DNA from: Octopus vulgaris
Taxonomy: Eukaryota
Reading direction: 5' to 3'
Length of the DNA: 64,000 bases
Assembly: GCA_951406725.2 (NCBI GenBank)
Contig: OX597831.1
Coordinates: 7,998,001-8,062,000 of the forward strand
Positions 40,783 through 63,302 of this stretch are shown piece after piece (position 1 is the stretch's first letter; every line of letters starts with the position of its first letter). Both the position numbers and the translations under genes were made by a program. The notes beneath the pieces are model-generated. The model was not told the origin of the DNA. It ran no database searches and saw only the letters and a list, made by a program, of their open reading frames with translations.

Positions 40783-43362
40783 TAATACCAAGATAAGGAG
40801 ACACAAACATACACACATACTCTCACACATGCACACACGTACAGATACACACATACAGACACACACGTACATATCATCATCATCATCGTTTAACGTCCGC
40901 TTTCCATGCTAGCATGGGTTGGATGATTTTGACTGAGGGCTGGTGAACCAGATGGCTGAACCAGGCTCCAATCTTGATTTGGCAGAGTTTGTACTGCTGG
41001 ATGTCCTTCCTAATGCCAACCACTCTGAGAGTGTAGTGGGTGCTTTTTTACGTTCCACTGGCACATATATATATATATATTTGTATATATATATGTGTGT
41101 GTACATCTATATCTGTGTATGTACATGTGTGTGTATATATGCATCAATATATATATATATATTCTCTTCTTCTTTTACTTGTTTCAGTCATTTTGACTGT
41201 AGCCATGCTGGAGCACCGCCTTTTAGTCAAAGAAATCAACCCCTGGACTTCTTCTTTGTAAGCCTGGTTCTTATTCTATCGGTCTCTCTTGCTTAACCAC
41301 TAAGTTGCAATGACGTAAACACACCAAAATCAGTTGTCAAGCAATGGTGGAGGGACAAACATACAAATATATAGATATATATTTATGTGAGTGTGTGTGT
41401 GTGTGTGTGTGCATGTATGCATATAGATACAGCAGACTTCTCTCAGTTTCCATCTACCAAATCCACTCATAAGGCTTTGGTGCCACACAGTGGGACTGAA
41501 CCCAGATCAATGTGGTTGGGAAGCAAGCTTCTTATCACACAGCCAAGCCTGCACCTATCCACACAACCACGCCTGTGTCTATATATTCTATATATATATA
41601 TATATATATTATATATAGCCAAGTTGCCTTCATATTTCATGTTGTTTGCGTTTTGTGACATCTTGTACACATATATGCATATATATCCGGAGTCATTCTT
41701 GTTGCTTATTTTTGATTATATATATATACATATATATATATACACACACATATATATGTAAGTGTGTACATATATGTATGCATATATGTATATATATATG
41801 TGTGTGTGTGTGTATACATATATATTTATTCTGTAAAGGATTAGGGAATTTGAAATCCAGGCAGGTATCTTATGAGCACTCTGATACATTCCAAATCTTG
41901 CTAACCACATTAAATGATAGGGAACATACAAAATTGTATATAACCTAAACAATCAAACTGTACTTCACTCAGCAGATGAATCCTGACTTTGCTTCACTGA
42001 ATCTCATGCAGCATACAGAGTGTGTAATCAAAATCTCAAAAAAGAAGAATGGACAATTTATTTACTAAAGTACTATTTTCATTAAATTCCAATCTGACAC
42101 ATGTTTCTGCTGGATAAGTGTCTTAATGTCCTTTGATGCAGCAGTTATGTGCTTTTAATTCATTTGAATTTAAATCAGTTGCAGTACATCTTCATCCAAA
42201 ATTTGACATTTCTATTTGGCATTTCTTTGTTTATATGAATTAAATGAAATGAGCAAGGAATCCAATAGCACACCTAATTTAATTTATTGTGAAACCAATA
42301 ATATCCATAGAGTGATACCTACTACTCTAGGTAAAGGCATAATACATCTGCCAATAGCAAGCATAGAGTTAATATTAATAAGTATTATTGTAAGTGTAAG
42401 AACAAATTAGTATGTCCACTTGGAGGGCGATACTCCAGAAAAAAATCTAGTTTATAGATGTATATAGTAACAGCTGATGATATTTCTAATTATTATGTAG
42501 ATCCATGTTCTACTGATTTTAAATGAAGATTATGTAATCACCTTTCTCCTTTCAAAAATAGAGAAAAAATGGGTTCATTTAGACTTGAAAGGATAGGGAC
42601 ACCAAATACGATATCAAATGGTCAATAATTAGTATTGCTTCACCATATATTAATGGCAATCAGAAATGTGATCTCTGCTTGGAAGAAATATTCCTTATCC
42701 TTAACTCTAATTATGGGTTATTAAACAGTGAAAACAAATTAGCATTAAAATGTAAAAATTCATTTAGAAAAGTTTTTAAGTACTTTCCATATAAGTAATT
42801 TAATTTGGACTCACTCAGGTTGAAGACATATAAGTTAACCCAATTAAATAATAACAAATTTAGTTTAGAGTTTGACAAATTTGCTCTAATCTACAACTCC
42901 AATTGCTAGGATAACCTCCCACTTGTTTATTGATGTATTTTTTTTTAACTAAGGCAAAATATTGTTGGAGTTTCACTTTGCTGTATTCATTTCAGTGAAT
43001 ACTAGATTTCTAATATTCGGAAAAACGTATAACAATTCTATTGCTATGGAATAGTCTGGCTCCCTAACTGAAACAATATTTATCTCATCTTTTATTTCGT
43101 CTGTCTTTACGTTCTGAGTTCAAATTCCACCGAGGTCAACTTTGCCTTTCATCCTTTCTGGGTCAATAAATTAAGTGCCAGTTGCATACTGGAGTCAATC
43201 TAATCGACTGACCCCCCTCCCAAAAAATTTCGGGCCTTGTGCCTAGAGTAGAAAAGAATATTTATTTCACCTTTCTTTCAATTCCTTTCAAATCAGTCCA
43301 TTTATCTTATATTGTGTGATATTCTCTTTAACACAAGCGATTAGTGGTGTCACTGCATCCTG

Positions 43363-44496: not shown

Positions 44497-44732
44497 CCAT
44501 TTTGATTCGCTAGCCTCTGCACGCATTTTTTTTTCTCTCCTTCTTTCTGTGTTTCTTCTCTGTGTATCTTTCTGTTGAAGAGCGTAGGCTCGAAACGTTA
44601 AAGACTTGTTTTATTTATATTTCCTGAGCGCCATACTAATACAATTGTTTGTTTGTATTCCACCTGCCTTCGTCTTTTGTTTATTTCCGTAAACCTGCCT
44701 TCGTCTTTTGTCTATTTTCATAAAGCTTCCCG

Positions 44733-44733
<1 letters not shown>
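44495..44733 (+). mobile_element. short (TA)n-embedded element carrying a hammerhead-like motif, copy A
   Basis: Homologous to 59430-59613 and 62867-63095; motif TCTTT-CTGTTGA-A-GAGC-GTAG-GCTC-GAAA-CG-TT-AAAGA at 44567-44604. Confidence 0.8.
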
Positions 44734-44774
<41 letters not shown>

Positions 44775-44784
44775 TACACACACA

Positions 44785-46992: not shown

Positions 46993-47763
46993 TAGGGGGG
47001 GGGTGCAGTGTACTAAATCTTAAATTTAATCTTCATTTGTAATCGATGTCAAGACAGTTTCCCTCTTACATATGAAAAAGTCGGCCATAAACTGCTGCAT
47101 GTGTCATGTATGTTACAATCAGAATGGCAATGAGACTAAAGTATGATATGAATGAGACTAAAGAATGATGTGGATGAATCTAGCAAGGAATGGCTTGGAT
47201 TAACAAAGTAGGAAATGGTAAATCAGAGACGTGACTTGAAGAAGTAAGAACAATGTCAAAGGGTTTGTTAGAAAGGAACTGCTTTGAAATTAGAGATGTT
47301 AAACTGTGAAATGAAAATCTTTGAAAATATTCTTAAAAATGATTCCATAGTAGCACAGATATGGCTGCGTGGTTAAGAGGCTCACTTTGCAGCCATTTAG
47401 TTTTAAGTTCAATCCCATTGTGTGTTACCTTGGCCAAGTGTCTTCTACTCTAGACATCAAGCTGACCAAAGCTTTGTGAGTGGAATTTGGTAGAAGGAAA
47501 CTAAAAGAAGCCCAACATCATCATCATCATCATTTAACGTCTATTGTTTCATCCTGGCATAAGTTGAACCAGTTTCACAGAATTTGGTGAGCTGCAAGCT
47601 CCAAGCACTGATGTCTTCTCTGGCGTGTTTTCTATGAGTAGATGCCCTTACTAATGCCAACCATTTTATAGTGTGTGTTGGATTCTTTATGCCTCTGGCA
47701 CATGTGAGGTGGCCAAGTAAATTGGAAGCTAGGAAAAGAAAAGGCAAAAAGGAAAAGCTCTCT

Positions 47764-47795
<32 letters not shown>

Positions 47796-47947
47796 CAGCA
47801 AAAACAATTAAGATTCAAGAGAATTCAAATGAATTCAAATGAATATGGTACTTAACTTCGATGCACCAAGATTCTTTATGGTATTAACCATAAAATTATG
47901 TGGGGTGATTATAACCAAGAAAAAAGCAACAAGAATGGATCAGTAGA

Positions 47948-48032
47948 TTAGTACAATTGTTTCATACTAAAAACATTTAATTTCAAGCTGCAAATATTAC
48001 AGCAAATATAATGTCAAGTATTCATCAGCTAA
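47948..48032 (-). ncRNA. complete type I hammerhead ribozyme motif
   Basis: Minus strand TTAG-CTGATGA-ATACT-(long stem-loop)-AGTAT-GAAA-CAATTG-TA-CTAA; all core nucleotides canonical, palindromic stem III, GUA triplet. Confidence 0.85.
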
Positions 48033-48117
48033 ATCACATATAGGTTTTCCATATATTCTTAGAGAGTGTAAATATCCTTATGAAGTTATAGGAGTGAGTT
48101 CCATGCTTTTTTCTTGG

Positions 48118-48190
<73 letters not shown>

Positions 48191-48429
48191 TATAGATAGA
48201 TAGATAGATAGATAGATAGACAGATAGATAGATAGATAGATTTATAGATTTATATATATACACAATGTGGGCTTCTTTCAGTTTCCATCAACCTAATCCA
48301 CTCACAAGGCTTTGGTCATCCTGGGGCTATAGCAGAAGACATTTGCCCAGAGTGCTAGGCAGTGGGACTGAACCCAGAGCCATGTGGTTGAGAAGCAAAC
48401 TTCTTACATTTCTTACCATACACCCACAC

Positions 48430-48464
<35 letters not shown>

Positions 48465-58738: not shown

Positions 58739-59373
58739 GTGCATTCATACACAAACACACACACACACACATGTATGTACAGTAAGCTATAATCAATTTG
58801 CTGTTTATCACCTGCGATTCCAGGCATTGTCAGGTTTCTATGTCTATACATTCTCTCTCCCTCTCTCTCTCCCATTCTCTCTTTCTCTCTCTCTCTCTCT
58901 TTCTTTTTTTCCTCTTTCAGTTTCTTTCTGCTGGTGTTTTTATTTATTGTTTCTCTTCATATGTTTTGTTTATTTACTTTGCTTTTTATTTTATTTTTAG
59001 TCATTGAGTGACCATTTAGTTAGTTTACAGTCAGTTTTATTGACTATTCTTATCAGCTGAGACAGATAGGGGTTACTTTGGTCGGTTGGTTGGCTGGCTG
59101 GCTGGCTGGCTGGATGGCTGGATTGATGGATGGATGGATGGATGGAGGAAAGAAGATGGTAGGAATATGAAATAAAAGCAAAAGAAAGCTGTAAAGAGAA
59201 TAATAGAGAGTAAAGAAGGTGAGTGAGAATATGAGAATAGAGAACAGGGAAGGTTTATGAGAATATGAGGAGAGCCTGAAAGAAATGGCGTGGGGAAAAA
59301 GTTGAATGGATGTGACAGACTATAGATTAAAAAGACAGAATTCATAATAGATCGGACCCTCATCAATAGTTCA

Positions 59374-59429
<56 letters not shown>

Positions 59430-59432
<3 letters not shown>

Positions 59433-59613
59433 AAAGTTTATGACAAAAACAAAAGATGAAGACAGGTGGTGTACAAGACAAACAGATGTATTAGTATAAC
59501 GCTCAGGAATAGAAAAAGTCTTTTACGTTTTGAGCCTACGCTCTTCTACAGAAAGGGACACAGAAAAAAACAAGGAGAGAAAAAAATGTGTGCAGTGGCT
59601 AACAATCTATCAT
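59430..59613 (-). mobile_element. short (TA)n-embedded hammerhead-like element, copy B
   Basis: Minus strand CTTT-CTGTAGA-A-GAGC-GTAG-GCTC-AAAA-CG-TA-AAAG at 59520-59555. Confidence 0.8.
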
Positions 59614-62867: not shown

Positions 62868-63095
62868 GCCATGATAGATCGTTAGCCATATATATATGCC
62901 ATGATAGATCGTTAGCCACTACACACATTTTTTTCTCCCCTTGTTTCTCTCTTTGTTTTTTCTGTGTCCCTTTCTGTTAAAGAGAGTAGGCTCGAAACGT
63001 AAAAGACTTTTTCTATTCCTGAGCGTTATACTAATGCATCTGTTTGTTTTGTGCACCACCTGCCTTCATCTTTTGTTTTTTTCGTAAACTCTCCC
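62867..63095 (+). mobile_element. short (TA)n-embedded hammerhead-like element, copy C
   Basis: CTTT-CTGTTAA-A-GAGA-GTAG-GCTC-GAAA-CG-TA-AAAG at 62970-63005; the 5' 21-mer is duplicated. Confidence 0.8.
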
Positions 63096-63302
63096 TTTAT
63101 ATATATATATATCATCATCATCATCATCATCGTTTAACGTCCGTTTTCCGCGCTAGCACGGGTTGGATTGTTCGACCGGGGTCTGGGAAGCCAGGGGCTG
63201 CTCCAGGCTCCAGTCTGATCTGGAGTTTCTACGGCTGGATGCCCTTCCTAACGCCAACCACTCCGCGAGTGTAGTGGGTGCTTTTACATGCCACCTGCAC
63301 GT

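Follow-up and report, generated by a model that had tools for sequence, protein, structure and literature searches.

A probable PLE hammerhead with an extended helix II in a truncated, non-coding island within a TA microsatellite of Octopus vulgaris

A 330-bp island lies between TA arrays at 47791-48119 of the window, the whole stretch of 64,000 nucleotides of Octopus vulgaris DNA analysed here (C18:7998001-8062000, from a genome of 2.80 Gb in 227 contigs), and its minus strand reads as a hammerhead ribozyme. This raises the question of what kind of sequence the island is, and whether the hammerhead is a genuine one with prospects of cleaving. The initial annotation, made from the letters of the window, had described an intact hammerhead in a retrozyme-sized island. 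From the analyses below we conclude that the island is in all likelihood the 5'-truncated, non-coding 3' end of a Penelope-like retroelement (PLE), most likely of the Hydra clade, set in (TA)n. Its intact type-I hammerhead is predicted to cut between 47952 and 47951, and would be likely to do so efficiently only when two motifs pair through their palindromic helix III.

The hammerhead occupies 85 nt of the minus strand (47948..48032) and was recognised from its core, from a match to a strict descriptor and from covariation across 17 distinct homologs. In keeping with type I, its helix I is open and its helices II and III are closed. C3 U4 G5 A6 N7 G8 A9 form the box CTGATGA (CUGAUGA; 48028-48022) and G12 A13 A14 the GAA at 47963-47961, so that every core base is canonical, as had been claimed. 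Helix I pairs TTAG (48032-48029) with CTAA (47951-47948), and helix III is formed by the palindrome ACAATTGT (47960-47953), which begins with A15.1 at 47960 and ends with U16.1 at 47953. The A15.1-U16.1 pair and a non-G base at H17 (A17) are both present. The predicted scissile bond lies between A17 at 47952 and C1.1 at 47951, exactly where the initial annotation had put it, and stems I and II and the palindromic stem III were likewise found as it described them. An active type-I hammerhead would cleave itself in the presence of Mg2+ and leave 5'-OH and 2',3'-cyclic phosphate ends. Position 10.1-11.1 carries A-U in place of the usual G-C, and helix III of the window copy folds as a monomer into 2 bp with a 4-nt loop. 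The extended helix II arm measures 58 nt (47964..48021, minus strand) and is built in three tiers: a 5-bp basal stem (ATACT/AGTAT), a 6-bp middle stem (GACATT/AATGTT, with one G.U) and an apical 7-bp hairpin. The basal and middle tiers had been noted before, but the apical hairpin and the G.U had gone unmentioned.

The hammerhead motif at 48032-47948 is not due to chance. The strict hammerhead descriptor returned this one site on both strands of the 64 kb, where there are 22 CTGATGA boxes. The initial annotation had spoken of two best candidates for an active self-cleaving RNA, but no motif other than this one was recovered from the window. A loose descriptor (CUGANGA, helix II of at least 4 bp, helix III of at least 2 bp, helix I of at least 4 bp, H17 not G) was run on 300 dinucleotide-preserving shuffles of the window and matched a mean of 0.023 times, with one or more matches in 2% of the shuffles; when helix III also had to be fully palindromic, 0 of 300 shuffles matched. 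The Rfam hammerhead models gave no match to the window at gathering score and none to 47700-48200 at E up to 10, and in four relatives no hammerhead was present among the 150 listed of 190 weak matches. The Rfam matches that were listed for the window, the site and the relatives were all microsatellite artefacts. The long insert in helix II is the likely cause of this miss, and because of such a long helix II, screens by descriptor or by Rfam probably undercount motifs of this kind. A reader with only the sequence at hand had here found what is very probably a genuine ribozyme motif that curated covariance models missed.

The island was numbered in the ribozyme sense (q), as the reverse complement of 47791-48119. 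It is preceded by a (TA)14 array (47764..47791), one half of the presumed (TA)n target microsatellite. A 119-nt tail follows on the minus strand (q211-329; 47791..47909) that is homologous to the 5' leader after the upstream pLTR of full-length elements, and then 38 nt (47910..47947, minus strand) that separate the hammerhead from the short-form 3' terminus (...CTTGTTGCTTTTTTCTTGGTT), as placed from the sequence and the family copies. Upstream of the hammerhead in its own sense lie 73 nt derived from the 3' UTR (q15-87; 48033..48105, minus strand), a region in which other copies extend further 5' by variable lengths and into an ORF; the window copy is truncated at 48105. The next 14 nt (CTTTTTTCTTGGTT; 48106..48119, plus strand) are an inverted remnant with the same sequence as the outer end of those inverted arms that were found at eight of the 20 family loci, and, to judge from this match, they appear to be the last bases of a second copy that stood head-to-head with the main copy and abuts (TA)n. 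The other half of the target microsatellite (48120..48243) runs as (AT)n to about 48158 and then as (GATA)n to about 48243. The window copy is made up of the 14-nt inverted remnant, the main copy and the tail, all within one (TA)n tract and with (TA)n on both sides. The earlier description of an island between TA arrays without an ORF is borne out, with (TA)14 on one side, (AT)n on the other and no ATG ORF of more than 40 aa overlapping the island.

Several other repeats were observed in the window. Two copies of a SINE-like repeat in opposite orientation, at 47362-47512 (minus strand) and 48248-48460 (plus strand), bracket the island with its microsatellites, and the same repeat recurs many times elsewhere in the window. 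At 41687-41725 (plus strand) there is a fragment, ~40 nt long, that corresponds to the very 3' end of a PLE subfamily related to the present one (like that of locus L060); it is without a hammerhead and adjoins a TA-rich microsatellite. A dispersed repeat beginning GGGAAAGTTTATGA... is found at 44561-44776 (minus strand), 59370-59562 (plus strand) and 62963-63112 (minus strand). Each of its three copies starts immediately behind a (TA)n tract, so that the repeat appears to be a second TA-microsatellite-associated family in the window.

A search of the octopus genome with the island gave 2148 first-look candidates, 40 of which were scored and yielded 49 matches with 89-100% identity. At least about 2,000 copies, the island among them, are dispersed in the genome. 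In 20 family loci that were fetched with 1.5-kb flanks, the main copy spans from about q15 to q329, and at eight of them an adjacent inverted arm (from q15, q30, q34 or q85 to q210) lies head-to-head with the main copy, with the central junction between the arms varying from locus to locus. The end of the tail is followed by (TA) of at least 5 units within 45 nt at 16 of the 20 loci and, at the remaining four, by short stretches of AT that give way to (GTAT)n or to a mixture of TA and TG; the ends of the inverted arms are followed by (TA)n in all cases (8/8). Long copies and inverted arms end at q210, without the 119-nt tail. A direct tandem partner was present at none of the 20 loci within these flanks. 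Walking 5' from the arm led to copies that continue for more than 3 kb, and the region just 5' of the arm gave 250 first-look candidates vs 2148 for the island itself. The 5' truncation is graded among the copies, and the longer ones enter an ORF with reverse-transcriptase and GIY-YIG endonuclease motifs.

The ORF reached in this way holds ...GLYRDDALFV... and, towards its C-terminus, ...NVIYKCTV...FYLGCT...RIYNH..., and the motifs read by eye in the longer copies were GLYRDDAL, NHPPNII and, at the C-terminus, VIYKCT...FY[IL]GCT...R[IV][RY]NH. A search with the reverse-transcriptase part returned 71,427 first-look candidates, a lower-quality count that nevertheless points to a very large PLE family in the Octopus vulgaris genome. 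Among the 105 matches scored, open frames reached 1091 aa and many measured 970-1091 aa. In these ORFs (e.g., L043:1850-4801), the reverse-transcriptase part is separated from the endonuclease part by a long insert of low complexity that is rich in asparagine. Pfam assigned no reverse-transcriptase, GIY-YIG or other relevant family to the ORFs or to four homologs, and a sequence search of the Protein Data Bank with the ORF gave no match. The ORF has 230 homologs, most of them without a source name, the listed ones being of about 540-810 aa and mostly on contigs of 2-4 kb; the few that are named come from corals and Argonauta. Its language-model neighbours carry PF26215, PF28514 and some RVT_1. 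As Pfam is silent, the identity of the protein rests on the motifs, the 230 homologs and the language-model neighbours.

The Hydra clade of PLEs is marked by RWK, by DKT instead of DKG, by a CxCX5C linker and by CxxC and CxH around conserved E and N, as set out in the clade description of Craig et al. (2021; PMC8557442), which also gives (TA)n insertion and canonical, readily detected hammerheads as properties of the clade. On comparison with that description, an ORF of 984 aa was found to carry RWK (RRIRWKTY), DKT (PADKTGN), CxCX5C (CKCRIKSKC), CxxC (CQLC) and CxH (CVH). From these markers together with the (TA)n setting, the clade is most likely Hydra, an assignment that we treat as provisional.

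The same hammerhead is found in each of the two terminal repeats of full-length copies, and the upstream hammerhead stands about 120 nt before the open frame begins. At locus L043, the two hammerheads are 4650 nt apart (about 4.65 kb between cleavage sites). When the tail was compared by BLAST with full-length copies, it matched their positions ~1758-1874, just downstream of the upstream hammerhead, and its homolog in the full-length elements stops shortly before the first ATG of the ORF. According to PMC8557442, PLE insertions are truncated at the 5' end, come with an inverted partner that is 5'-truncated as well, have a tail on one side only and favour microsatellites. The present family shows 5' truncation, terminal repeats, an adjacent inverted partner and a one-sided tail. 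The tail is 119 nt here, compared to 30-40 bp in that account. A PLE reverse transcriptase is described as starting at two internal sites, which explains the tail (PMC11167929). Taking the motif and its setting together, we are highly confident that the window holds a genuine PLE hammerhead in a truncated copy.

Conservation within the window's own family is of little help in judging selection: a fully intact hammerhead is present in 23 of 29 arms, and at 89-98% identity this says little about it. Twenty further loci were considered that had been picked by reverse-transcriptase similarity alone, at 56-86% amino-acid identity to the query. A homologous hammerhead was present in 19 of these 20 loci, in 25 instances, and locus L058 showed none in the stretch fetched. 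The window motif was aligned with 16 other distinct versions (17 in all), with the downstream copy of L041 (G12 -> C) left out. The pair count covered 22 pairs and excluded the middle tier of helix II, where the alignment shifts. At the 22 pairs, 90.8% of cells were paired, compared to 30-50% with the partners slid, 12 of the pairs changed on both sides, and 0 of 500 shuffles reached the observed covariation score, figures that are to be read with the structure having been derived from the same sequences. Within the CUGANGA box only N7 varies, with all four bases represented, and GAAA, A15.1, U16.1, A17 and C1.1 are invariant (17/17). Helix I occurs as TTAG/CTAA, TCGG/CCGA, TTGG/CCAA and GCGG/CCGC, and the palindrome of helix III as ACAATTGT, ACGATTGT, ACGATCGT and ACATATGT. 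At 10.1-11.1, four versions have G-C, nine G.U, one A-U and three a non-standard combination, and the series from G-C through G.U to A-U keeps the pair. Judged from this alignment, the motif is conserved and co-varying, in the pattern expected of a selected ribozyme. As the inner positions of the palindrome also co-vary, an intermolecular helix of 8 bp fits better than a monomer hairpin with a 2-nt loop, and the covariation of helix III supplies independent comparative support for the dimer model of PLE hammerheads as put forward in PMC4209133.

The closest full-length relative of the window family is locus L041 (G000:C3:148306136-148313811), with 86% reverse-transcriptase identity. Its upstream motif has a U.U mismatch at 10.1-11.1 and its downstream motif has G12 -> C.

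The predicted folds are less favourable to cleavage by a single copy. The minimum-energy fold of the window motif (-15.9 kcal/mol) is not the hammerhead (-12.3), the competing fold being 3.6 kcal/mol more stable. It contains the hairpin UAGUAUGA/UUGUACUA at 47948-47970 (minus strand), in which the 3' strand of helix II pairs with bases at the cleavage site and buries it. The fold of a 111-nt stretch had z = -1.68 and a shape other than the hammerhead, and the dimer cofold, predicted with pairings other than helix III, is uninformative. The minimum-energy folds of the relatives L043, L050 and L054 retain helices I and II. In four sequencing runs presumed to be of RNA, the assembled contigs are broken up by the repeat, with no starts, ends or joints reported, and they bear neither on cleavage nor on expression. 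According to the cleavage experiments reported in PMC4209133, single PLE hammerhead motifs showed no detectable or low cleavage and dimers cleaved weakly, and PLE hammerheads, with their short helix I and palindromic helix III, seem to act as dimers. A PLE hammerhead from Anolis cleaved in vitro and was rescued by C3G/G8C as expected; in this one PLE studied in vitro, however, insertion was not impaired by mutating the hammerhead, and none of the RNA-seq reads was reported to end at the hammerhead site (PMC11167929). Against efficient cleavage of the window copy would argue its 2-bp monomer helix III, the stabler rival fold predicted for it and the absence of a partner within 64 kb. Cleavage of the window motif in vitro in dimeric form is nearly as likely as not, and appreciable cleavage by the solo window copy in vivo is rather unlikely.

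The length of helix II sets this family apart from its more distant relatives. All 17 homologous helix II arms measure 51-61 nt and each folds alone into a closed three-tier hairpin; the window arm alone folds at -12.9 kcal/mol (z = -3.3). For comparison, 77 metagenomic loci encoding 35-44% identical relatives were scanned with a descriptor that allowed arms of up to 90 nt. The scan gave 36 motifs in 29 of the 77 loci, with helix II arms of 11-25 nt and helix III segments of 4-10 nt, mostly 9-10 nt and palindromic. Helix II of the octopus family is two to five times longer than in these relatives, and an exact-pattern scan of metagenome contigs for the long-helix-II motif gave 0 matches. In the papers searched, as distinct from repeat libraries such as Repbase, no description of a long-helix-II PLE family was found. 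We claim no more for the long-helix-II hammerhead than an added member of the already known kind of PLE hammerhead.

The 3' strand of helix II also contains a hexamer, AUUAAA, that resembles a poly(A) signal (47976..47981, minus strand) and ends 24 nt short of the scissile bond. In all 17 distinct homologs this strand holds one AAUAAA or AUUAAA, ending 17-26 nt before the cleavage site, and the hexamer is present in 25 of 29 arms of the window family, one base change being enough to switch between the two forms. The hexamer is possibly the poly(A) signal of the element. With such a signal 17-26 nt upstream of the scissile bond, the ribozyme cut would roughly coincide with the site of cellular cleavage and polyadenylation. 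The threefold-expanded helix II could then be a dual-purpose module, an embedded poly(A) signal combined with a ribozyme into a ribozyme-coupled switch of the 3' end, a proposal that we consider unlikely. If it were true, the two cuts would fall at about the same place, the choice between the hammerhead and the competing hairpin fold would decide the fate of the transcript, and the two fates would be a polyadenylated mRNA or a read-through RNA serving as template for reverse transcription.

The structure of the copies can be accommodated by the following scheme. The endonuclease of the element would nick (TA)n, and its reverse transcriptase would copy the element RNA by target-primed reverse transcription. 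Depending on which of two internal sites is used for the start, the copy would have the short end (q210) or the long one, which includes the 119-nt tail (q329), and priming on both DNA strands would produce the head-to-head inverted partial copies. As the inserted copy runs through the scissile bond without a break, the RNA that served as its template was presumably uncleaved (or re-ligated). Where the element is full-length, its two hammerheads would cut read-through or tandem transcripts down to unit length. In a solo fragment, the motif would be a passenger, which could cut a host or read-through minus-strand transcript only if folded, and probably with the need of a second motif in trans.

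Three other readings were weighed against a truncated PLE end with a ribozyme. The island was called retrozyme-sized at the outset, and with about 315 bp, no ORF and a high copy number it could be a non-autonomous retrozyme unit that is transcribed, self-cleaved, circularised and copied into DNA again by the reverse transcriptase of a PLE. A circular template could give rise to copies that span the cleavage site, and a 2026 preprint argues for PLE terminal repeats as the origin of animal retrozymes (10.64898/2026.07.22.740005). The loci do not have the structure of such a unit. The partners present are inverted ones (8/20) and direct tandem partners are found at 0 of 20, the 5' truncation is graded into coding sequence with no fixed unit, and the region just 5' of the arm still has its 250 first-look candidates. 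We regard the retrozyme reading as very improbable, and see in the island a 5'-truncated 3' end plus the leader of an element whose longer copies encode reverse-transcriptase and GIY-YIG motifs. Inverted arms some 196 bp long, their outer ends both lying in (TA)n, and the 14 nt of the other arm's terminus kept in the window copy, would also suit a deletion derivative of a TA-targeting foldback or miniature inverted-repeat DNA transposon, in which the hammerhead-like motif would be accidental. The arms, however, align collinearly with the 3' end of an element that has motifs of a reverse transcriptase and an endonuclease, and at their inner junctions there is no fixed loop but truncation points that vary. 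The tail of one arm, moreover, matches the 5' leader of the element, and covariation of the motif extends over subfamilies with 56-86% identity to the query in their reverse-transcriptase parts. This reading, which is scarcely credible, was dropped once the 5' walk had reached the reverse-transcriptase/endonuclease ORF.

The remaining alternative accepts the truncated PLE copy and concerns the job of its fold, which may be conserved for something other than cleavage, as a recognition structure for the reverse transcriptase or a carrier of the poly(A) signal, with the hammerhead core catalytically idle in vivo. It would account for the AAUAAA/AUUAAA hexamer in every one of the 17 versions, for a helix II of 51-61 nt, far beyond catalytic need, and for copies contiguous across the cleavage site, in which uncleaved RNA was the template; the lack of detectable in vitro cleavage by single PLE motifs in the assays of PMC4209133 and, in the Anolis experiments of PMC11167929, the insertion by hammerhead mutants and the missing RNA-seq ends point the same way. 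The variation in the core is that of a catalyst, however, with N7 free to take all four bases, the rest of the core invariant, H17 never G and A15.1-U16.1 invariant, and a plain protein-binding hairpin would not need the core bases of a hammerhead. The Anolis motif, moreover, cleaved in vitro with C3G/G8C rescue (PMC11167929, as above). We consider an idle core quite improbable, and prefer to see in the island a truncated PLE end that carries a selected ribozyme. For annotation, this would mean that the island, like its relatives (roughly 2,000 in number), is to be listed as the truncated end of a retroelement in a TA microsatellite and not as an independent ribozyme gene.

Metazoan non-LTR retrozymes consist of direct tandem repeats of a small unit with a hammerhead in each, and give rise to abundant circular RNA of unit length. 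The octopus island shares with them (Cervera and de la Pena, 2020; PMC7229834) a small non-coding repeat, a type-I hammerhead in which the weakness of helix III suggests action as a dimer, and a likely mobilisation by a PLE-type reverse transcriptase. Unlike these retrozymes, the copies here are truncation products of an autonomous element and not a separate unit-length family, and the 20 loci contained no direct tandem.

The PLE hammerheads described by Cervera and de la Pena (2014; PMC4209133) belong to type I; their helix I is short, at 4-6 bp, and the palindrome of their helix III implies dimers. As in the present family, they are located in the terminal repeats near the 3' end and on the coding strand (PMC4209133; PMC8557442 File S2, for the elements given there). 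They are said in PMC4209133 to keep G-C at 10.1-11.1, where the window family has A-U. Helix II differs, at 51-61 nt here compared to 7 bp with a 4-8-nt loop in three published rows (PMC8557442), and the helix III palindrome is 8 nt here compared to 9-10 nt in most of the 36 motifs of the metagenomic relatives.

A similar element that has been described is Hydra-1_Obim from Octopus bimaculoides (Craig et al., 2021; PMC8557442, in its entry for that element), which shares the protein markers, the preference for (TA)n and a mollusc host. Its protein also has strings such as GLYRDDAL in common with the ORF described here, as compared by eye. Hydra-1_Obim measures 2507 bp and has a conventional hammerhead with a helix II of 7 bp and an 8-nt loop (PMC8557442, same entry), whereas the elements described here have about 4.65 kb between cleavage sites (L043), and their ORFs of 970-1091 aa with the asparagine-rich insert are a further difference from it.
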